The notes under the pieces: generated by a model
The model's input: only the letters and a program-made list of their open reading frames with translations
What the model was told of the DNA's origin: nothing
The model's database searches: none
Made by a program: the position numbers and the translations under genes
In this document: in pieces, positions 12,673 to 24,793 of the stretch
Layout: every line of letters begins with the position of its first letter
How positions within the stretch are numbered: position 1 is the stretch's first letter
Origin: a virus
Lineage: Duplodnaviria; Caudoviricetes
Reading direction: 5' to 3' (one strand)
Length of the DNA stretch: 25,650 nt
IMG/VR virus record: IMGVR_UViG_3300033067_000538
Span: 1-25,650 of that record

Positions 12673-14931
12673 CTACAGAGCTGGTCGATCCACCTGATTT
12701 GAGCCGAACGCCGGCCCTGTCCCTTCGCCGGGTTGGCCGGGTGGCTGTGGCGCGTTGTTCCCGCCCTGCAGCCCCTGCTGCGCGGGGTCGGTCTGGGCGT
12801 TGCCCGTGGCGGGCTGCTTCTGGCTGTTCTGCGCCACAATCGACGGCGCGTTCGCCAGGATGAACTTGTTGACATCCAGCTTGTCGCCGAGACGCCGCAC
12901 GCCCTCCTTGGCGAGCTCCACCGTATCGAGACCGGGGATCTGCATGAGGATGGGCGCGATCTTGGTGAAGTTCTCGATCTCGACGGCCTGATTGGGGCGA
13001 CCCGACGAGCCGGCTTCGACCTCGAGGTACATTTCGTTGGCGATCTGGGCGAGCGTCTGCGTCGGCCACACGGCGCCGGGGCCGACGATGACCTTGACCT
13101 GCTCTTCGCTCATCTCGCCGAAGAAGATTTGCGACGACGCCCGCGCGACGACGGACAGGAAATCGTCGAGGTCATCCTTCGAGGACTCGTCGGACTGCTG
13201 GGTGGCATTCGCGGCGATCGTGCTCTCAGTGGCGGTCGCCTTGGTGATGCCGCCGTAGTTCGCATCCGACGATCCGACCGAAAGTTGACGGTCCTCGTCG
13301 AACTGGTTGGTCTCGTAGAGGTTCGGGTCGACGCCGGGCGTCGGGATGACCTCCATGACGTCGGCGAGCTTCGTCTGCCCGTCCTTGTTGACCTCGATCA
13401 CATCGAAGGCTTTGGCCTTCTTGAGCGCGTCGCGGGCCTCTTCGTCCACCAGCCCCTTGGACACGGCGAAGCGCGGCCGGGCGGCCTCGCGGTGCTCGCG
13501 TAGGCCCTGACGGGAGCGATTGTGCTCCATCGCGGCGTCGTGCAGCAGCGCCACGTCAGACTTCGGGAACAGCTTCTTTTCGTTCTCGGCGGCGTTGAAC
13601 GTCAGCGCGTACACCGGCCAGAAATCGTCCACGAACACGTCGGGCGGCGCGGGCGGACGCAGGAAGCACTTATGGCCGTCGGCCACGTAGTAAACCATGC
13701 CGCTCAGCTTGTCGTAATACTTGAAGACCGAGACCAGGCCCTTGCCGTTGATGTCGGTACGGTTGGTCTCGCCCGTGTCGTCGGAATCCTCGTTCCACAG
13801 CGGCAATTCGGGCTGCTGCGGCCCGTCGAGCGACTGGCCGTTCGACCCATAGCCCGTGTAGCCGCCGGCGCGGATGGTGGATTCGGGGAACATCTCTTCG
13901 ACCTGCTCGCAGGTGAACAGGTACTGGATGGTCAGGTGCTGCGCGCCGACAAAGCCGATGAGCTGCGTCGTCAACTGGTCGGGGATGACCTTGGTCGATT
14001 GTGGGAAGTCGAAAATCAGCCCTTCGCGCAGCACGATCTCGGGCTGGGATTGCAGCGTCTCGACGGCCTTCTGCAGTTCGAACATCTCGGCGTCGTCGGG
14101 GTCGATCTCACCCTCGACAGCCTCTTCCATGAGGCGCTGCATGTGACCGAGCCGGGCGCGGGCATCGGCAAGCTGCGCGGTGATGTCCGGCGCTGGGCCG
14201 ACCTCACGGATGAAGCCGAGCTCGATATAGCTCACGCCGCAAGTGCAGGCGCGGCGCACCAGCGCCTTGGCGGCCATCTTGAAGTTGAGCGGCTTCTGCT
14301 CCCTGAGGGCCTTGGCGAACAGAATTTCGAGGGTCTTACCGACCTTGTCGACCATCTGCCGATAGGCGGTGCCCTGCTGGAAGTCGGCGATGATCTTCTG
14401 GGCGTCCTCGAAGCCCTGCGGCAGTTGCGGCTGGACGGGGACCTGCATCCCGGTGATCGGGTCGGGCGGGCTCGCGGCAGTCATCTGCGCGGCCTGCGCC
14501 ATCGCCATCTGCGCCTGCTGGGTGATCTGGAACGCCAGCATCAGCGATTTGGGGTTTTCGTCCCAGACCGTGAAGTCGAGCCGTTCGTTCCGCGCCGCGG
14601 TCGCCTTGGGGTTCTTGGCGTAGAGCGAGTTGGTCTTCTGCTTGACGTGCCGGCCGGCGATGTTGGTCTTGTAGAGCTTGTCGCTCCACTCCATCTCGTC
14701 GAAGCCGTGATACGCCATGAACATGTCGCGGCGCATCTGCTTGAAGTCGTCGGCGAAGAACGCGATGTCGCTGCGGATCGTTTTCAGGATCTTCGTGACC
14801 TGGGCGGTCTCGTTCTCGGGCGGCTCGGGGGCTTCGGTGTCCGCTGACGCCGCGGCGTCCGGCATGACGGTCGGGTCGACGCTATCAGTCGGCGGCAGCG
14901 ACATGTCGTTCGTTGAAACTGACACTGGCAT
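12673..14931 (-). CDS. portal protein
   Basis: 752 aa from the ATG overlapping the TerL stop (TGATG). KATATES and LEVEAGSSGRPN resemble podoviral portals. Directly downstream of TerL. Confidence 0.85.
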   Translation of the reverse strand: MPVSVSTNDMSLPPTDSVDPTVMPDAAASADTEAPEPPENETAQVTKILKTIRSDIAFFADDFKQMRRDMFMAYHGFDEMEWSDKLYKTNIAGRHVKQKTNSLYAKNPKATAARNERLDFTVWDENPKSLMLAFQITQQAQMAMAQAAQMTAASPPDPITGMQVPVQPQLPQGFEDAQKIIADFQQGTAYRQMVDKVGKTLEILFAKALREQKPLNFKMAAKALVRRACTCGVSYIELGFIREVGPAPDITAQLADARARLGHMQRLMEEAVEGEIDPDDAEMFELQKAVETLQSQPEIVLREGLIFDFPQSTKVIPDQLTTQLIGFVGAQHLTIQYLFTCEQVEEMFPESTIRAGGYTGYGSNGQSLDGPQQPELPLWNEDSDDTGETNRTDINGKGLVSVFKYYDKLSGMVYYVADGHKCFLRPPAPPDVFVDDFWPVYALTFNAAENEKKLFPKSDVALLHDAAMEHNRSRQGLREHREAARPRFAVSKGLVDEEARDALKKAKAFDVIEVNKDGQTKLADVMEVIPTPGVDPNLYETNQFDEDRQLSVGSSDANYGGITKATATESTIAANATQQSDESSKDDLDDFLSVVARASSQIFFGEMSEEQVKVIVGPGAVWPTQTLAQIANEMYLEVEAGSSGRPNQAVEIENFTKIAPILMQIPGLDTVELAKEGVRRLGDKLDVNKFILANAPSIVAQNSQKQPATGNAQTDPAQQGLQGGNNAPQPPGQPGEGTGPAFGSNQVDRPAL

Positions 14932-17384
14932 CAGAAAACCCCACCGGCCCGAGTATCGTCCTGCGCCTTCTTCCAGGCGTCCATTTTCGTCAACCACGCG
15001 GCCGAGCCGACTTTTGGCTCAGCCTTCGTCGGTTTCGGCGCACTGACGCCGAACTGGCTTTGGAGGCCAATCCCGAAGAGCGACAGCATATCAACAAAAT
15101 CGTCGTGTGTCCCGTTCGGGAATGCCAGCATCTCTTCGATGGCCCTGTCCCAGATCGGACCCTTGGGGAACTTGACCTTTCTGACGGCGACGCGGGCGGC
15201 GATCGATTGCGCGCGGGTCTGCTTGTCGACGCTGGGCACGATTTCGCGCACGTTCAGGAAACGCTCGGTCTCAAGCATCCGCTTGTGCAGAAAGGGGCCG
15301 ATCGACTTGCTGATGTGGCCGGATTCCGCCCACCATATGATCGGCGCATTCTCGCCTGACCCCATCGACAGCATCTGTTCGACAGCGCGGTCGGTCGGCA
15401 CGCGCTCCCAGAACAGCTCGGTGAACCACAGATTGCCCTGGTCGTCGGCGCCGGCCTTGCCGAAACACGACGGGTCGTTGCGCTGCTTGGTGCCCACGGC
15501 GTGGTCGGACGCGGCATAGAAACGCAGGCCCTCGGGCAAGTCCTTGGGGTCGTACCGCTCGATGTTCTCGCGCCGGAACAGCGTGCCGTCTGCCACCGTC
15601 GGCGCCTGCTGGTAAAGCGCCGCGAAGCCGAGCGGGTCCAGTCGCTGCTGGCTCTCGAGGAAGTCGATGTCGTAGGCTTCGGGCCACAGCGCCTCGCCCG
15701 GCGCGCGGCCGAGCGGGTCGTCGGCCTCGGCTATCGCCGGCAACCGAATGATCTTCCACTTGCGGGCTTCGATCTCGTTGTACACCGGGTTGTCCGGGTC
15801 GGTGATGCGACCGATGATGTCGTCCGAGTGCCACCGCGTATTGTGGCTCACCAAGCCGTTGGCGATGAAGTTCTCGGTCTCGTCAACCTGGATGTCGTAG
15901 ACGTCTTCACGCCCGACCGGTTCAATCGAATACACCTCGTCCCTGGTTATCTCGTACGTATTTAGCGGCGGCGAGCAGAGTTCGCTCCGTCTTCCCGTAC
16001 CCGACAGCGAGGTTGCAGTCGTTGCACAACAGCCCTCTGATCTTGCCTGTTTCGTGGCAATGGTCGATGCACAGTTTCCCGCCCCAATGCGCGCGTACAT
16101 TTTTGCCAGGAAGCTCCCCGCAAACCGCGCAGCGACCCCCCTGACGTTCGACCAGTGTTTCGTAGTCTTCGAGTGTGATTCCGTAGCGCTGCTTGATCCG
16201 GACCCCTCTGCGTGACCGAGGATTGTTGGAGGCTGACCTAAAACCTTCTGCCCACCTGAGCTTATTGTAGTGCGGCAAGCAGAAGCCTTGGCACTTGGCG
16301 GGCTGGTCACAGCCATCGTGCTGGCATGAAACGCCTTTCCACTTGCCCCACTGGCCCGGACGATTACGTCCCCGCTTTTCAATCCGCTTAGGCGTATCCA
16401 CCGTAAGTCCCCATCAACGTCCACGAGAAACGGATGCCTCTCGTTTGCCTTGACGGTTATACCAGAAGTCATCCTGATCTCATAGCAGAAGTCAGAACCA
16501 TTGTTGATGTGATCGACGACGCGCGACGCGACCAACCGACCGTTGCTGTACGAAGCAACCATGTCGTTCGGTCGAACATCTCTGAGCGGCTTTTCCCGCC
16601 CGTCCGCCATTAGAACGGGAGTGTCGCCGGTCATACACATCGTCAGAATGACGATTTTGCGGCCCATGCGGCGGGTCATGAAGACCTTCGTAAACCAGTT
16701 CCACGCCTGGTCGCGGATGGTCTGCGATCGGGCCTCTTCGTGATCCTTGAACAGGTCGTCGCCGATGCCGAGGTTCATACCGCGGCCAGTAAGCGCGCCG
16801 CCGCGGCCCACGAAGACGAGGCGGCCCCCTTTCTCGGTCTGGATGTTGGCCTTCGCCGAGCCGCCGCGGCGCAGCCGATATTGCGGGAAAACGACGCGGT
16901 GCTGCGGGCTTGTCAGAATGGCGCGCGTGTCGGCGCCCATATCTTCGGCCATCGTGTCGCTGTAGGACGCAACACCAATGTCCCACTCGGGGAACTGCCC
17001 GCTCACCCAGGCCGACAGGCTCTTCGTCGAAAGCTGGGTCTTGCCGTGGCGCGGCGGCATCTCGAAGATGAGCTGTGCGCAGATGCTGCCATCGGGGTTA
17101 CGGAGTTCGCCCTTGATGAAAGCGGTGAGCGCCTTGGCGACCTCAACGTGCAGCTTCGTCGCGACGTAGCGCGAGCGGTGGACGTCGTTCGGCGCCGCCG
17201 GGTCTGGCATTGTAAACTGCGTGTAGGTCAGCAGGTCGTCATGCGCCTTCTTGGCGACGGCAAGGCGCTCGAGCAGGGCAATTTCCTGCTCGATCTTCTT
17301 GGGGTCGCGGGCCTTGAGCTCGGCCTGCTTGGCCTCCCACTCGGTCCTGCGACCCGTGAGAGGGTTGAAACCTGGTCTCGTCAT
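14931..17384 (-). CDS. terL: terminase large subunit precursor containing an intein (817 aa; 551 aa after splicing)
   Basis: Walker A MPPRHGKT, GRGGALTGRG, Walker B IGDDLFKD, M/TRW coupling motif split by the intein, nuclease acidic motifs ASDHAVG and HDDFVD. Confidence 0.95.
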   Translation of the reverse strand: MTRPGFNPLTGRRTEWEAKQAELKARDPKKIEQEIALLERLAVAKKAHDDLLTYTQFTMPDPAAPNDVHRSRYVATKLHVEVAKALTAFIKGELRNPDGSICAQLIFEMPPRHGKTQLSTKSLSAWVSGQFPEWDIGVASYSDTMAEDMGADTRAILTSPQHRVVFPQYRLRRGGSAKANIQTEKGGRLVFVGRGGALTGRGMNLGIGDDLFKDHEEARSQTIRDQAWNWFTKVFMTRRMGRKIVILTMCMTGDTPVLMADGREKPLRDVRPNDMVASYSNGRLVASRVVDHINNGSDFCYEIRMTSGITVKANERHPFLVDVDGDLRWIRLSGLKSGDVIVRASGASGKAFHASTMAVTSPPSAKASACRTTISSGGQKVLGQPPTILGHAEGSGSSSATESHSKTTKHWSNVRGVAARFAGSFLAKMYARIGAGNCASTIATKQARSEGCCATTATSLSGTGRRSELCSPPLNTYEITRDEVYSIEPVGREDVYDIQVDETENFIANGLVSHNTRWHSDDIIGRITDPDNPVYNEIEARKWKIIRLPAIAEADDPLGRAPGEALWPEAYDIDFLESQQRLDPLGFAALYQQAPTVADGTLFRRENIERYDPKDLPEGLRFYAASDHAVGTKQRNDPSCFGKAGADDQGNLWFTELFWERVPTDRAVEQMLSMGSGENAPIIWWAESGHISKSIGPFLHKRMLETERFLNVREIVPSVDKQTRAQSIAARVAVRKVKFPKGPIWDRAIEEMLAFPNGTHDDFVDMLSLFGIGLQSQFGVSAPKPTKAEPKVGSAAWLTKMDAWKKAQDDTRAGGVF
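15840..16637 (-). mobile_element. intein (266 aa) in TerL
   Basis: Block A CMTGDTPVLMADG, block B VKANERHPFLV, block F VYDIQVDETENFIANG, block G SHN followed by +1 Thr. Removal restores ILTM-TRWHSDD. Confidence 0.95.
15922..16401 (-). CDS. endonuclease VII-like (His-Me finger) homing endonuclease nested out of frame in the intein
   Basis: GGGGA RBS then GTG. N-terminal CxxxxC...CxxH, then RYGITLEDY, QGGRCAVC, IDHCHETGKIRGLLCNDCN. Confidence 0.9.
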   Translation of the reverse strand: MDTPKRIEKRGRNRPGQWGKWKGVSCQHDGCDQPAKCQGFCLPHYNKLRWAEGFRSASNNPRSRRGVRIKQRYGITLEDYETLVERQGGRCAVCGELPGKNVRAHWGGKLCIDHCHETGKIRGLLCNDCNLAVGYGKTERTLLAAAKYVRDNQGRGVFD

Positions 17385-17698
17385 CAGGCAGGAACGTCGG
17401 GCTTCTTCGATTCGAACAGCGCGAGCGGGTGGGCCACCATGCAGCCGTGAAGCGCCGGCCAGAGCTGGATGAGCCCGCCGAGATCGACGACCAGCAACTG
17501 GTCGGCCGCGTCGCCCGGCACGTCGATCAGCGCGACGAACTTGCCCTTCTGCTCGTCCGCCGCCTTCACGGCGTCGGCGACGTTGAAACAGGTCTGCTCG
17601 GTGACCGGGGCGTCGGCGGCCTTGGCGAACGTGACGATGGTCGCCAGACAGAGGCCGACGAAGAGGATGGTCGCGGGGATCGCAACTTTGGGGCTCAT
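17384..17698 (-). CDS. hypothetical exported/membrane-anchored protein
   Basis: 104 aa, N-terminal hydrophobic segment ending AKA-AD, coupled to genes on both sides. Confidence 0.65.
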   Translation of the reverse strand: MSPKVAIPATILFVGLCLATIVTFAKAADAPVTEQTCFNVADAVKAADEQKGKFVALIDVPGDAADQLLVVDLGGLIQLWPALHGCMVAHPLALFESKKPDVPA

Positions 17699-19724: not shown

Positions 19725-20891
19725 TCACATCCCCAGCATCGGGCTATTGGTCGACACTATTCCACTCGCAGGCGTATAGGTCAGGACGATGATGCCCTGC
19801 TTGCCGGCACCGGTATTGCCAGCGCCGCTGCCCTTGGCTCCACCTGAACCGCCTCCATAGTTGCCGCCAGCACCCGAGTTACTAGCGCCGCTACCCAGCC
19901 CGCCGCCTCCGCCGCCGGAGCCGTGGGTTGCGTCCCACTCCGTTCCCGCGCCACCCGCGCCGCCACCCGATGTGCCTGCGGAGCCACCCGAGCCAGCATC
20001 CCCCGATCCACCGTTCGTGGCGGTATTACCTGCTGTAGAACTGCTATCGACCCCGGTGTTTCCCGCGCCAGCCCCGCCGGCAGCACCACCACCCCCGCTA
20101 CCACCGCTTCCGCCAGCGCCCGTGAGGTTCCCCCCGCGCCCGCCGTTGTTACTGGACGTGCCCACGCCGCTCGCACCGGTGCCGCCCGCCCCGCCATTCT
20201 GAGAGTTGTTGCCGGCTGCGCCGCCTACGCCGCCCTTGGACCCGACGCTCGACCCGCCCAGAGTAGTGCCGTTAAACCATGTGTCGCCGCCAGTGTTGCC
20301 GGCAACGTCGCCTGTAACGCCAGCGCCACCAGTCCCAAGCCGCCGCGTGGCCGTTGTCGTGCCCGGCGTGGCGAACGTAAAATTGGAGATGCTATTCCAA
20401 GCGCCACCTCCGCCCCCAGTCCCATGCGTCGTCGTGGTCTGGGCATAGCCGCCGCTTCCGCCCGCCCCGACCGTCTCGACGGTATTGCTCGAATTGTTCC
20501 AGTCAGACGGGCTCGTGTAGGTCTGGTTCGAGCCGGTTGTCGTGGTGATGAAAACCTGCGTGGCAAAATCGTATTCCAGCAGTTCGCCCATGCCCGGCAT
20601 CCAGCCGGGAGAGGGCAAGTCCCAATCCTCGCGCGGCATCGGCTCGCCATAGGCCAGATGCTTTGCCAGCGACCACGAGAAGGCGTCGAAGTCGTCGCGG
20701 CTGTCGAACCAGCCGGTCCATATCGTGCGGACGAAGCCATCGTGCAGCCGCTGCCGGGCGCGCACGCGGAAGCGCGTCATGTCAGGGTTGCCGAACTCGT
20801 CCTTGGGCTGCGCCAGAGACGGCGCGCGCCACTGCCGCTCGGGCACCGGCATGAACAGTTTGGACTGATATTTCTGCGGCAGAATTATCAT
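19725..20891 (-). CDS. glycine-rich tail fibre/receptor-binding protein
   Basis: 388 aa from MIILPQ (ATGA overlap). VETVGAGGSGG, GGGGGAW, GGNYGGGSGG and GAGKQGIIVLTY mark a phage glycine-rich domain. Confidence 0.75.
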   Translation of the reverse strand: MIILPQKYQSKLFMPVPERQWRAPSLAQPKDEFGNPDMTRFRVRARQRLHDGFVRTIWTGWFDSRDDFDAFSWSLAKHLAYGEPMPREDWDLPSPGWMPGMGELLEYDFATQVFITTTTGSNQTYTSPSDWNNSSNTVETVGAGGSGGYAQTTTTHGTGGGGGAWNSISNFTFATPGTTTATRRLGTGGAGVTGDVAGNTGGDTWFNGTTLGGSSVGSKGGVGGAAGNNSQNGGAGGTGASGVGTSSNNGGRGGNLTGAGGSGGSGGGGAAGGAGAGNTGVDSSSTAGNTATNGGSGDAGSGGSAGTSGGGAGGAGTEWDATHGSGGGGGGLGSGASNSGAGGNYGGGSGGAKGSGAGNTGAGKQGIIVLTYTPASGIVSTNSPMLGM

Positions 20892-21931
20892 TGCAGGGCG
20901 TAGATGCTGTAGGTGGAAATGCCGTTGATGCGGCGGATCGAGATGAGGAACTTGCTGGTGTTGGTCGTGGTCAGGGTCGAACCGGTACTGCTGCCCACGG
21001 TGAAGCCGGAGAAGGTGATGGTGCCGGCGGTGGCATCGTTGGTCACGAGGATGTCGACGGCGCAGTCCGAGGCCGGTGCGGTCCACGTCGCCGCGCCATG
21101 ATTGGTGCCATACTGGTAGTTGCCCAGCGTCGGGTCGATGGTGAAGCTGGTGATGTTGCCGAGGTTATTCGGCGTGATAGTAAAACCCGCAGTGATCGTA
21201 CCCGTAGTCCCGAGACGCAGATAAAACGTATCGAAGTACGCTTTGAGCGTCGCCTTGATGTTGGCCCACGTGACCTTCTTCGACACGTTCGACGCAGCGC
21301 TGTCGGAGATAGCCACCAGATCGGCATCGACCGGCGTGGTCTTGCCGGTGAAGCCGTTGATGAGCGGCCCGATCGCCACGCCCACCCACGTCTTGAGATT
21401 GGCGAAAGTGAGCTGCTTGGTGGCGTTCGTCGCCGCGCTGTCCTGGATGGGGAGCGAGTCCGCGTCAACCGGCGTAGTCTTGCTCGTGGCGGCGTTGACG
21501 AGCGCGCCGAACCCGGTAAACGCCGCGGCCCACAAATTGGCCAGCGTAACCTGCTTGGTGGCGTTCGACGCCGCTGAGTCGGCCACCGCGATGCTGTCCG
21601 CACCAACCGGGGTGGTTTTGCCGGTGAGCGCCGCGATGACGGCGCCGAGTTTGACGCCTGCGGCCGTGGCGAAATTCGCCCAGGTGATTTTCTTGACGAC
21701 GTTCGACGCCGCAGAATCGACCAGCCCGATTTCATCGGCATCGGCCAGCGTTGTCTTAGCCGAGGCGGCGTGAACCTGCCCCTCGAGCGCGAGCGGAAAG
21801 CCGCCGGCAGTGGCTCCGTCGTTGACGACGACAGTGTGCTTGTCGGTGTCGACCGTGACCTCGCCGGCCAGGCCGGTGAACGTCGCGTGTTGCGCGGTCG
21901 TGCCTCTGCGGGACTGGATTGCCGTGCTCAT
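20888..21931 (-). CDS. tail fibre protein with Mtd_N-like N-terminus and four 46-aa repeats
   Basis: IQSRRGTTAQHATFTGLAGEVTVDTDKHTVVVNDGATAGGFPLA resembles the major-tropism-determinant N-terminal domain. Repeated KTTPVDAD...DSAASN..K..T.AN. Confidence 0.8.
   Translation of the reverse strand: MSTAIQSRRGTTAQHATFTGLAGEVTVDTDKHTVVVNDGATAGGFPLALEGQVHAASAKTTLADADEIGLVDSAASNVVKKITWANFATAAGVKLGAVIAALTGKTTPVGADSIAVADSAASNATKQVTLANLWAAAFTGFGALVNAATSKTTPVDADSLPIQDSAATNATKQLTFANLKTWVGVAIGPLINGFTGKTTPVDADLVAISDSAASNVSKKVTWANIKATLKAYFDTFYLRLGTTGTITAGFTITPNNLGNITSFTIDPTLGNYQYGTNHGAATWTAPASDCAVDILVTNDATAGTITFSGFTVGSSTGSTLTTTNTSKFLISIRRINGISTYSIYALQ
21250..21757 (-). repeat. four tandem 138-bp (46-aa) degenerate repeats
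   Basis: KTT codons start at 21757, 21619, 21481 and 21343, exactly 138 bp apart. Confidence 0.9.
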
Positions 21932-23362: not shown

Positions 23363-23932
23363 TCAGTCGAAGACACTCGGCTTTGGTGCGCCGGAGTTGA
23401 AAAACTCCCCGTGCAGTTCTCGGCCACGCGCGCAGTACGCAGCGTGCGCCTCTGCCGGTGTGTCGTAGGCGCCCAAATACCACGTCACGCCGTCCTTCTT
23501 CGCCGATGCAGAGAACCGGCGACCAGAAACAGACACCCCCTTTGGCAACCCGAGTTTGGACCACCCACGCCTGTTCGCGTTGTTCTGGGACCTTGTCGCC
23601 GGCCTTAGGTTTGTGCGCCGATTGTCGACAGTGTCGACGTTTCTGTGGTCAACAAAATCCGGGCGCCGCCCCTGATTCTCCAAGGCGTATATGACCGAAT
23701 GAGCAAACGGCTTGCGCTCTCTACCCATGTACACGAACGTCAGGCGCACATAGCCTTCCGCGTCGCGTGTTCCTGCTAGGCGCCCGGCATATTTCCTGTT
23801 CCACGTGGTGCAGTGTGCAGCCGTGACGAAGTGACTCTCCGGCCGTGCGCGCCAGAAGACCTCGCCGGTCTCGGGCACGTAGCGAAAGCACTCGCGCAAA
23901 AATTCAACGGGTGGTAGGGGTCTTGCTGTCAT
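23363..23932 (-). CDS. free-standing HNH homing endonuclease with AP2-like C-terminal domain
   Basis: LRECFRYVPETG, VDHRNVDTVDNRRTNLRPATRSQNNAN, LPKGV, YLGAYDTPAEAHAAY, LHGEF. Start at MTARPL (23932). Confidence 0.9.
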   Translation of the reverse strand: MTARPLPPVEFLRECFRYVPETGEVFWRARPESHFVTAAHCTTWNRKYAGRLAGTRDAEGYVRLTFVYMGRERKPFAHSVIYALENQGRRPDFVDHRNVDTVDNRRTNLRPATRSQNNANRRGWSKLGLPKGVSVSGRRFSASAKKDGVTWYLGAYDTPAEAHAAYCARGRELHGEFFNSGAPKPSVFD

Positions 23933-23996
23933 AGCGCAGTTCCGATGCGTTGTGGCGATGAGGCCGAGCAGCGTTGACGCGCTGTTCGGCCCGACT

Positions 23997-24025
23997 ATTT
24001 TAGGCGGTCTGTCAGTCCGTTGCAA
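23997..24025 (-). promoter_or_regulatory. sigma70-type promoter upstream of the HNH gene
   Basis: Minus strand TTGCAA, 17 bp, TAAAAT, with GACTGACA in the spacer. Confidence 0.7.
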
Positions 24026-24256
24026 CCTGCAAAGACTGATCGGACTGATTGTCCGAATTGGTTTTTGAGCCGCGGATTCGTACAGGCGTGGAGCGACAGT
24101 TTCCGCCGAGCCGAGCGAGTATACCGGAGGGGTGCCCGACGCCTCGAGCGCCGCGCCTGCCACCCTTCGACTGCCACTGTCTAGATTACTGATCTAGTCA
24201 CACACGTTATGGATCAATGGGTTAGCCGGGTAGTTGGGCTAGGCTTGCGCACAACC

Positions 24257-24703
24257 CTAGTCGAAGACGCCAGGTTCGGGCGTCACGTCGCGCGCCGACT
24301 CGGCCCGTGCGTCCTGTTCGCGACGCAAGGTTTCGATGCTGGCTTGGAGCTCGTCGTAGCTCATCTCTGATGGCTCTTTGTCGGCCTTGCCTTCATCGAC
24401 GCCTAGCGTGCGATCATAGGCCAGCTTGGTGGCGCCCAGCGCCGCGCCGGCTGGCACGGTCTTGTCAGTCAGCAGGCGCTTATGTGTGGCGAGCGCAAGT
24501 GGCAGAATCTCGTCTCGCAACATGATCTCGGCCTGGCGGATGACCTCGTCGCGTACTGCCGGCCGCGCCATGAGCTGCGAGCCCGAAACGTGCGGGTGCG
24601 CCAATCCGGCCCTTGTGGCCGCGTATTCGCGATCATTGGTCCGCGCCATGTAGCGGCTAAACGCCTTTTCTTTGGGGGTCAGCGACCCGTTTTTTCGTGG
24701 CAA
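24257..24703 (-). CDS. terminase small subunit (probable)
   Basis: LTPKEKAFSRYM...AATRAGL...SQLMARPAVRDEV resembles the TerS helix-turn-helix region. SEMSYDELQ C-terminal motif, first gene of the late strand. TTG start after AAGGGG is inferred. Confidence 0.7.
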   Translation of the reverse strand: MPRKNGSLTPKEKAFSRYMARTNDREYAATRAGLAHPHVSGSQLMARPAVRDEVIRQAEIMLRDEILPLALATHKRLLTDKTVPAGAALGATKLAYDRTLGVDEGKADKEPSEMSYDELQASIETLRREQDARAESARDVTPEPGVFD

Positions 24704-24793
24704 AGCCGCCGAGCCCCTTCGCCGTTGTGCTGTAATAACATAACACCAGCAACAGCCTAAGCGCAAATATGACGATCATCATAAATGGGGAAC

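Follow-up and report, generated by a model that had tools for sequence, protein, structure and literature searches.

The terL locus and its intein

The environmental phage sequence IMGVR_UViG_3300033067_000538 (Duplodnaviria; Caudoviricetes), analysed over positions 1 to 25,650 of the IMG/VR record (25,650 nucleotides [nt], referred to here as the window), carries a terL gene, encoding the large terminase subunit, which is interrupted in frame by the coding sequence of an intein. Within the latter lies a second gene on the same strand but in another reading frame, coding for an endonuclease VII-type protein (Table 1). This layout has already been described for this intein family (bioRxiv 10.1101/2025.01.02.630785), of which the window is a further member.

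The terL product matches Pfam Terminase_6N (E-value 2.8e-9) and phrog_38 (E-value 2.8e-78). The intein begins with Cys1 and ends with His265-Asn266, followed by Thr at +1, its extein flanks being ILTM and TRWH. Class 1 inteins are defined by an N-terminal Cys or Ser, a block B His, a penultimate His, a terminal Asn and a Cys, Ser or Thr at +1. All of the corresponding residues are present (C1, H68, H265, N266 and the +1 Thr) and are invariant across 46 aligned inteins. With matches also to Pfam Intein_splicing (E-value 2.6e-16) and to TIGR01443/TIGR01445 (above cutoff), this bears out a preliminary description, made from the window alone, of a 266-amino-acid (aa) intein with intact splicing blocks. 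The block B position that is usually Thr is Asn (N65) here, as it also is in the intein of phage Chandler. The GC content is 56.8% in the intein and 64% in the exteins.

An AlphaFold model based on a 46-sequence alignment gives a confident HINT domain at intein residues ~1-98 and 222-266, which matches the solved DnaB and RecA mini-inteins (E-values 1e-8 to 1e-7; TM-score to target up to 0.89), with pLDDT (predicted local distance difference test) values below 50 at residues 99-135 and 137-221. The in-frame linker between the two splicing regions returned zero matches in Pfam, PHROGs and NCBIfam, in line with the earlier expectation, and Ser, Ala, Gly and Thr together make up 79 of the 160 intein codons overlapped by the nested gene; the linker is predicted to be disordered and shaped by the nuclease frame. 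Splicing of this intein, with restoration of TerL, is a prediction; one relative has been shown to splice. It is not an assembly artefact, as pieces identical to it were found in contigs of all eight public sequencing runs examined, with those matching the window best coming from two studies that may include its own source. Rfam gave no matches over positions 14900-17500, and there is thus no sign of an intron.

Table 1. Features of the terL locus of the window (positions are those of the window).
Feature	Position	Strand	Remarks
terL, terminase large subunit precursor	17384..14931	minus	817 aa; 551 aa after predicted splicing
Class 1 intein, TerL6-f site	16637..15840	minus	266 aa, TerL aa 250-515; immediately preceding the coupling motif T-R-W
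N-terminal splicing region, intein aa 1-98	16637..16344	minus	N65-x-x-H68, invariant W80; pLDDT ~95 up to residue 90
In-frame linker, intein aa 99-221	16343..15975	minus	pLDDT <50; no family match
C-terminal splicing region, intein aa 222-266	15974..15840	minus	D248, H265, N266
Nested endonuclease VII-type gene	16401..15922	minus	159 aa; intein offset 236, frame 3 (+2), same strand as terL
Nested start codon GTG	16401..16399	minus	third base of intein codon 79 and TG of the Trp80 codon
Shine-Dalgarno sequence GGGGA	16412..16408	minus	6 nt before GTG; formed on the conserved codon for Gly76
N-terminal Cys/His finger of the nuclease	16326..16267	minus	C26, C31, C41, H44
Endonuclease VII catalytic core	16200..15952	minus	C91, C94, D113, H114, H116, R122, C126, C129, N130
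Predicted sigma70-type extended -10 box TG-G-TATAAC	16464..16456	minus	intein codons 58-61
-35 position at 17-nt spacing	16484..16479	minus	matches poorly in the window; modestly enriched in homologues
Predicted RNA hairpin	16456..16411	minus	inner stem pairs 16444-16436 and 16431-16423; outer stem pairs 16456-16450 and 16417-16411 and extends to the ribosome-binding site
GGTnnTGAT-type motif (codons 47-49) and imperfect inverted partner (codons 54-56)	16499..16471	minus	around the -35 position
Candidate co-conversion tract	15839..15725	minus	directly downstream of the intein

The nested endonuclease VII-type gene

The coordinates, GGGGA ribosome-binding site (RBS) and GTG start given for the nested open reading frame (ORF) in the preliminary description are correct, and the strand, which it left unstated, is minus. 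The predicted protein matches, as had been anticipated, Pfam Endonuclease_7 (PF02945, E-value 2.5e-19, aa 68-150) and also PHROG endonuclease VII families. All residues of the CX2C, DHxH, R and CX2C-N signature are kept and match those essential in F-CphI and T4 endonuclease VII. Among 122 full-length homologues, DHxH is found in 120, RxLLCxxCN in all 122 and the finger pattern in 118; finger residues C26, C31 and C41 are invariant in 46 aligned sequences, and the finger had no match in NCBIfam. The nuclease profile aligns to residues 10-71 of T4 endonuclease VII (1e7d, E-value 9e-8), and profile and structure model both point to this enzyme and Hpy99I. Structural comparison of the model gave a VIA Z of 5.9 and a root mean square deviation of 6.3 with 84 residues aligned; a Foldseek search with the model gave no match at an E-value of 0.001 or below, the best being T4 endonuclease VII at 0.018. 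At both ends the ORF overlaps strands of the splicing domain, as had been suggested, these being E77-82, E91-96 and E229-239 of the AlphaFold model.

There is also a second size class (L012, L020, L025, L084 and others) with inteins of approximately 890-915 nt and nucleases of 180-200 aa possessing an extra N-terminal Cys finger, which accounts for about 55 of the 122 full-length nested genes.

Distribution and integrity of the family

A query of IMG/VR with the nuclease yielded 106 confirmed members among 120 candidates; of the 80 kept, 78 stand beside intein halves in terL and two are free-standing. From this set, six actinophage records and the window, 80 inteins were extractable, with the nuclease in frame 3 in 79; leaving out 13 duplicates, three frameshifted and two N-end-damaged sequences resulted in 62 inteins. 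With a query consisting of the splicing domain only, and thus blind to the nuclease, 514 of 537 IMG/VR candidates were confirmed. The best 80 of these included 78 complete inteins, 67 of them unique, comprising 59 that are strictly intact, one full-length variant, one with a premature stop and six with deletions. Of 25 loci in GTDB genomes, 17 proved to be TerL inteins, 14 of them unique and all 14 intact, on contigs labelled Bacillota, Pseudomonadota, Chloroflexota, Verrucomicrobiota, Actinomycetota, Saccharimonadota and others, such bin labels being no proof of host. In the pooled set a full-length nested gene is present in 122 of 132 unique inteins, and the nuclease was found in frame with the intein in none of the 132. 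An IMG/VR pattern scan using the whole window intein gave three candidates, none confirmed.

In-frame deletions of varying extent, removing part or all of the nuclease, occur in L100, L113, L162, L128, L139, L154, L116, L056 and L077, yielding mini-inteins of 144-149 aa in the first three. Those deletion alleles whose sequence was inspected still retain the nested ATG and present a natural decay series toward mini-inteins. In three single records (P0001, P0002 and L018) a frameshift fuses the N-terminal part of TerL, the N-terminal part of the intein and the nuclease, truncating TerL; these are errors or dead alleles. Among 28 longer proteins an intein was found only in P0001 and P0002, both TerL-truncating singletons, a result that is weak as evidence of absence with eight of the 28 sequences inspected and 7,996 candidates scored.

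Dual coding and selection

Each open frame is unlikely given only the other, at P ~0.02-0.03 in the window. When the nuclease of the window was recoded synonymously, 3.3 stops were expected in the intein frame (P(0)=0.02), and recoding of the intein gave 3.4 expected stops in the nuclease frame (P(0)=0.03); averaged over 53 representatives, the expected numbers are 4.3 and 6.6, respectively. The ratio of non-synonymous to synonymous substitution (dN/dS) was calculated from 17 disjoint homologue pairs, 72-92% identical, with 95% bootstrap intervals. Over the overlap it is 0.15 (0.13-0.18) in the nuclease frame and 1.16 (0.99-1.36) in the intein frame over the same bases, and it is 0.11 in the codons that belong to the intein only. 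Judged by these ratios, the nuclease frame is under purifying selection and the intein frame across the overlap is not. The window's own pair follows the same pattern (pN 0.25, pS 0.65), its nearest homologue being 66% identical over the overlap.

The idea that the spliced-out linker tolerates whatever the nuclease frame dictates holds for the linker, in which differences peak at intein codon position 2 (0.33 versus 0.08/0.12), the wobble position of the nuclease. It does not hold at the two ends of the overlap. Across intein codons 80-95 change is lower in the intein protein (0.12) than in the nuclease (0.23), and the nuclease stop shifts between 43 and 103 nt from the intein end among homologues. 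From these patterns the constraint is mutual, with the splicing domain dictating at both ends and the nuclease termini following.

The nested start is kept in all 62 unique intact inteins, as ATG in 50 and GTG in 12, with 22.7 expected to have A. Codon 79, where four- or six-fold degenerate, ends in a purine in 12 of 12 cases (6.3 expected), and the Gly76 codon is GGA or GGG, which gives the Shine-Dalgarno (SD) sequence, in 57 of 61 (19.4 expected). The nested start codon and RBS are, by these counts, under selection.

Empty alleles and mobility

When the window was compared with 105 other members, median identity was 27% in the exteins, 65% in the splicing domain and 52% in the nuclease, and in 32 pairs both intein parts exceed 75% identity but the exteins remain below 55%. 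The terminases of phages Affeca and Fosterous (L081/L083), by comparison, have exteins 99% identical and nucleases 45% identical. On these values intein identity is uncoupled from the identity of the host terminase. In L081/L083 and a second actinophage pair (L084/L085) the terminases are 99% and 91% alike, respectively, with splicing parts 84-86% and nucleases 45% identical, a pattern that would reflect either separate invasions or nuclease swaps.

An empty site is present in the phage stretch L088, which shares 98.8% identity with the window across 2,825 nt downstream, and also in L089 and L090. The TerL of the window nests among these three empty alleles with a support of 100 in a FastTree extein tree, the deep branches of which were not relied on. 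In sequencing run X13 there is one empty-site contig and one piece identical to the intein. Downstream of the intein, the window differs from L088 at 12 positions in the first 115 nt and at five in the next 794 nt, with none from +116 to +694, which makes the first tract a candidate for co-conversion.

Two further observations concern variant alleles. Record 28 of run X8, covering window positions 15517-15847, is a variant terL allele with 16 differences in 15529-15743 and none in 15744-15847, hinting that the intein and approximately 100 nt of flank may be common to different alleles, with only eight letters of the record reaching the intein. In L054 an empty-site sequence runs into the intein without its first residues, probably a chimera assembled from an empty and an occupied allele.

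At the insertion site conservation is confined to non-degenerate positions and third positions are unconstrained, which fits an enzyme that would read a protein motif across very different terminases. Codons that escape the nuclease were also considered, as eight of 10 degenerate codons near the site differ between the window and the empty L088. This was rejected, the +1 and +2 codons of L088 being common among occupied alleles (33/131 and 68/131) and third positions being unconstrained. In L079 (2501-2773) and L080 (2319-2636), terL-like genes with P-loop motifs are immediately preceded by distant (42-44%) free-standing endonuclease VII genes, a possible model for the ancestor of the nested gene.

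Predicted expression signals within the splicing domain

Signals were sought in 90 homologues less than 85% alike, by base-matched synonymous recoding repeated with three cut-offs for redundancy. Across intein codons 1-42 synonymous codon choice is saturated, whereas codons 44-71 show uneven conservation, and three predicted signals, an extended -10 box, a hairpin and a GGTnnTGAT motif, would account for most of this synonymous conservation.

The extended -10 box lies 60 nt before the nested start and ranks top of 228 positions scanned across the homologues. Its z-score is 7-11, that of the TG is 3-5 and that of a -35 element at 17 nt is ~5, all of which count related sequences as independent, a caution that tells against their size. 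A is found at the second -10 base in 86 of the 90 homologues. The GGTnnTGAT motif is present in 66 of 90 (z 16-23, subject to the same caution), with one mismatch in the window, and with its inverted partner it shows 21 double changes against 10.8 in shuffles (45/90 homologues).

The hairpin has a z-score of -3.2 in the start-region fold of the window. In hairpin codons 65-72, Arg is encoded by AGR in 72 of 85 cases (17-24 expected) and Pro by CCG in 68 of 90 (23-35 expected), and Watson-Crick pairs number 481 of 810, compared to 332 expected under synonymous recoding. If the RNA is cut at the predicted start (near 16449), the energy needed to open the SD falls from 6.0 to 3.0 kcal, with a decrease in 75 of 90 homologues and a change from 6.1 to 1.7 in the window; a control stretch is hardly changed by the same truncation (3.7 to 3.3; 40/90). 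A mutual-information scan was dominated by relatedness and was set aside.

No operator resembling the homing site was detected in the promoter region of 88 inteins, where the best 14-mer similarity was 6.66, compared to 6.70 in control codons 1-42. The one RNA run, X14, contains contigs over the 5′ junction of the intein and none is listed over the nested ORF; these contigs show neither starts nor strand and have no bearing on expression. The combination of promoter and hairpin was not found in print for these inteins in a search that had most subscription journals outside its reach.

Relation to known systems

Among cultured phages, the Gordonia phages Affeca, Sedona, Keitabear and Angelicage have the best-matching terminases (50.6% over 266 aa for the intein, 56-58% for the nuclease), and 39 of 42 matched cultured-phage records cover at least 80% of the intein. 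These four belong to the actinobacteriophage inteins for which a frame-3 endonuclease VII-like homing endonuclease has been reported (cluster 47, Affeca, Keitabear, Sedona and Angelicage; bioRxiv 10.1101/2025.01.02.630785), and they share with the window the site before T-R-W, the frame and the start register. The window differs in being from an environmental phage, with Rhizobium phage RHph_N65 having the nearest cultured TerL (58.7%). In the parts of the preprint covered, second ORFs are placed typically outside the splicing domain, whereas that of the window overlaps the domain at both ends; the words promoter, hairpin, ribosom- and start codon do not occur in its main text.

Chandler gp6 TerL6-f, of the cluster B3/B4 mycobacteriophages, occupies the coupling-motif site and was spliced in a reporter (PMC5050341). 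Its intein is 43% identical to that of the window, with the same catalytic residues, site and nested gene. The sections of that paper covered test cleavage only for two other TerL inteins, of the LAGLIDADG type (PMC5050341).

Out-of-frame nuclease genes have also been described elsewhere. A cyanobacterial dnaX intein carries a LAGLIDADG gene in the +2 frame (bioRxiv 10.64898/2026.09.14.751524) and, as far as the available part of the text goes, resembles the window in its same-strand out-of-frame nuclease, disordered in-frame linker, frame-specific selection and putative SD, and in the co-existence of empty, mini and full alleles. It differs in nuclease family and host gene, and neither promoter nor hairpin appears in that part of the text. 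A brucellaphage terL intein has an out-of-frame HNH gene (PMC4422536, 2015), and in the ShiLan methylase insertion a nuclease gene is nested out of frame in the host gene (PMC11855218). As described in the parts covered, both differ from the window in having HNH rather than endonuclease VII, and ShiLan also in being without a splicing domain. The intein is not mentioned anywhere in the text of PMC4472886, and no paper was found for AlanGrant or Vincenzo in combination with intein.

With regard to the enzyme, the homing endonuclease F-CphI has a C-terminal CX2C...DHxH...R...CX2C-N domain whose residues were reported to be essential in the part of the paper covered (PMC6083498). The T4 endonuclease VII resolvase, 157 aa in length, has an N-terminal catalytic domain and a further C-terminal domain; unlike it, the window nuclease has its catalytic domain after the finger domain and at the end of the protein. 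F-CphI is free-standing and not part of an intein, whereas the window nuclease possesses the N-terminal Cys/His finger(s) and an intein host.

For the control of expression, the closest parallel is with T4 I-TevI, I-TevII, I-TevIII, segB and mobE, for which the sections covered describe masking of the RBS by a hairpin on long transcripts and its release by way of a promoter in the upstream hairpin arm (PMC2988022). The geometry of the predicted module would match that of I-TevI control; it differs in that its predicted signals are sigma70-like and written in protein-coding codons of a splicing domain, with no homing-site-like operator. Hairpins have also been noted before split-intein nucleases (PMC2677866, in part).

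Proposed mechanism and alternative explanations

The intein and its frame-3 nuclease very probably form one mobile element, in which the intein would splice while the nuclease, made from its own predicted promoter and start, would cut empty terL, with repair copying the element. In the proposed mechanism the intein would splice out and restore TerL, and the nested RBS would be hidden by the outer stem of the hairpin when the terL mRNA is long. The internal extended -10 promoter would give a shorter RNA without the upstream hairpin arm, from which the nuclease could be translated. This F-CphI-like enzyme may recognise the non-degenerate bases of the T-R-W...D-L..G codons and cut intein-free terL, whereupon gene conversion would copy the element. 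The preliminary description had similarly proposed two products, and the sequence tests set out for that reading were passed, namely selection, a linker without fold or family, a conserved start and RBS, and empty alleles.

The element likely originated by out-of-register entry of a free-standing nuclease gene into a mini-intein, where it would have borrowed the Trp80 and Gly76 codons. The nuclease likely stays out of frame because a single frameshift leaves the nuclease stop truncating TerL; as one frameshift gives only TerL-truncating fusions (P0001, P0002 and L018), moving in frame needs two changes.

Some observations weigh against this interpretation or parts of it. The nuclease is deleted or stopped in 10 of 132 homologues, and the distribution of these inteins was termed 'more ambiguous' in part of the earlier account (bioRxiv 10.1101/2025.01.02.630785). 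The N-extein of the window differs from L088 throughout (57/747 nt), and the tract of differences downstream of the intein cannot be polarised, so that ordinary mosaicism could explain it. For the expression signals, a simple promoter and terminator scan of the window gave no sites, the -35 of the window is poor and the -10 of the actinophage members is degenerate. Covariation in the hairpin is modest (82.1% paired compared to 80.4% in column shuffles, with further pair types not above shuffles, 389/500), and RNAalifold returned no consensus structure for it.

Several of these points would suit the same element with a different mode of expression: internal initiation on the long terL mRNA would yield the nuclease, its RBS becoming accessible as ribosomes reading the TerL frame melt the hairpin, and the promoter-like signal would be incidental or used only in some hosts. 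In addition to the negative scan, the RBS and start are kept in nearly all members, including the actinophages with a degenerate -10, and an alternative helix pairing the His68-Phe70 codons with the start codon would form on the short RNA too. However, the -10 box ranks first of all positions scanned, with its near-invariant second-base A, enriched TG and a -35 at the proper distance, and truncation halves the SD opening energy with little effect on the control; expression by internal initiation is considered possible but doubtful. A programmed frameshift producing a fusion of the N-terminal parts of TerL and the intein to the nuclease appears extremely unlikely. Such fusions do exist, but only as the TerL-truncating single records already mentioned, and the nested start codon and SD are selected; moreover, in 25 of 53 representatives frame 3 meets a stop at most five codons upstream of the start, and in four the stop immediately precedes it.

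It is also quite improbable that the nuclease is a domesticated packaging helper, either a T4 endonuclease VII-like resolvase or a terminase-associated nuclease, serving the phage rather than homing. The gene sits inside terL, T4 endonuclease VII is the closest solved structure, and a terminase-associated role was raised for the nested HNH of the brucellaphage in the portion of that paper covered (PMC4422536). However, a phage stretch almost identical downstream of the site does without the intein, the match is limited to T4 residues 10-71 with the catalytic domain placed C-terminal to the finger domain as in F-CphI, and presence is patchy, uncoupled from the host and accompanied by repeated deletions of the nuclease. 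There is similarly little chance that the nuclease of the window phage is an intact-looking but inactive relic in a vertically inherited intein. Selection was measured on homologue pairs, with the nearest homologue of the window rather distant, and decayed alleles exist; against this, all catalytic and zinc residues are kept, the window's own pair shows the constraint reported above, its sister allele is empty and the GC content of the intein is still below that of the gene.

Beyond the mobile element of intein and nuclease favoured here, a more extensive proposal has roughly an even chance of being right. Splicing-domain codons 44-80 would then constitute a complete expression cassette, with a control site in the form of an inverted repeat, a sigma70 promoter, a hairpin masking the RBS, the RBS itself and the start codon. 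The element would thereby be a homing unit that is self-contained and independent of the host, and would have spread through terminases only 25-35% alike in phages detected in the genomes of many different bacterial phyla, with the window as a recent invasion whose co-conversion edge lies ~115 nt downstream.

Genomic context and distant inteins

The contig, at 25,650 nt the only one in its assembly, represents a phage late region with an HNH gene, a terS-like gene, tail-fibre-like genes, lysis genes, terL, the major head protein and a likely portal, the last by position. The free-standing HNH gene (24163..23363, minus; Pfam HNH_3, phrog_99) directly follows the weakly terS-like gene (24766..24257, minus), which is approximately 7 kb from terL with the tail-fibre-like and lysis genes in between. 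A gene at 21931..20888 (minus) has an Mtd_N domain (major tropism determinant N-terminal) and tail-fibre PHROG matches. The labelled runs matching the window best are river and freshwater metagenomes.

Distant inteins were also encountered in non-terminase hosts (L198-L205), several of which resemble radical SAM proteins; these have no endonuclease VII, and several have long open antisense frames of up to 381 aa. In the terL of Mesorhizobium phage Cp1R7A-A1 (L087), a 35%-identical intein-like N region lies at another terL position, with no match to a nested endonuclease VII.

Implications

This locus makes both the expression and the homing of such hidden nucleases testable. It offers a near-identical empty allele as a natural substrate as well as a relative known to splice, and its start codon, RBS and predicted promoter have defined positions, where changes are possible that leave the intein protein as it is. 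With 514 splicing-domain relatives in IMG/VR from one pattern scan, the family extends far beyond the actinophage examples. As the nested gene is unannotated in all six GenBank/RefSeq records opened, that of Chandler included, surveys based on counts of in-frame domains probably classify active elements wrongly as mini-inteins. The arrangement lends support to an origin of full inteins from mini-inteins invaded by free-standing nucleases, and shows that for the nuclease to be out of frame can be a stable end point.

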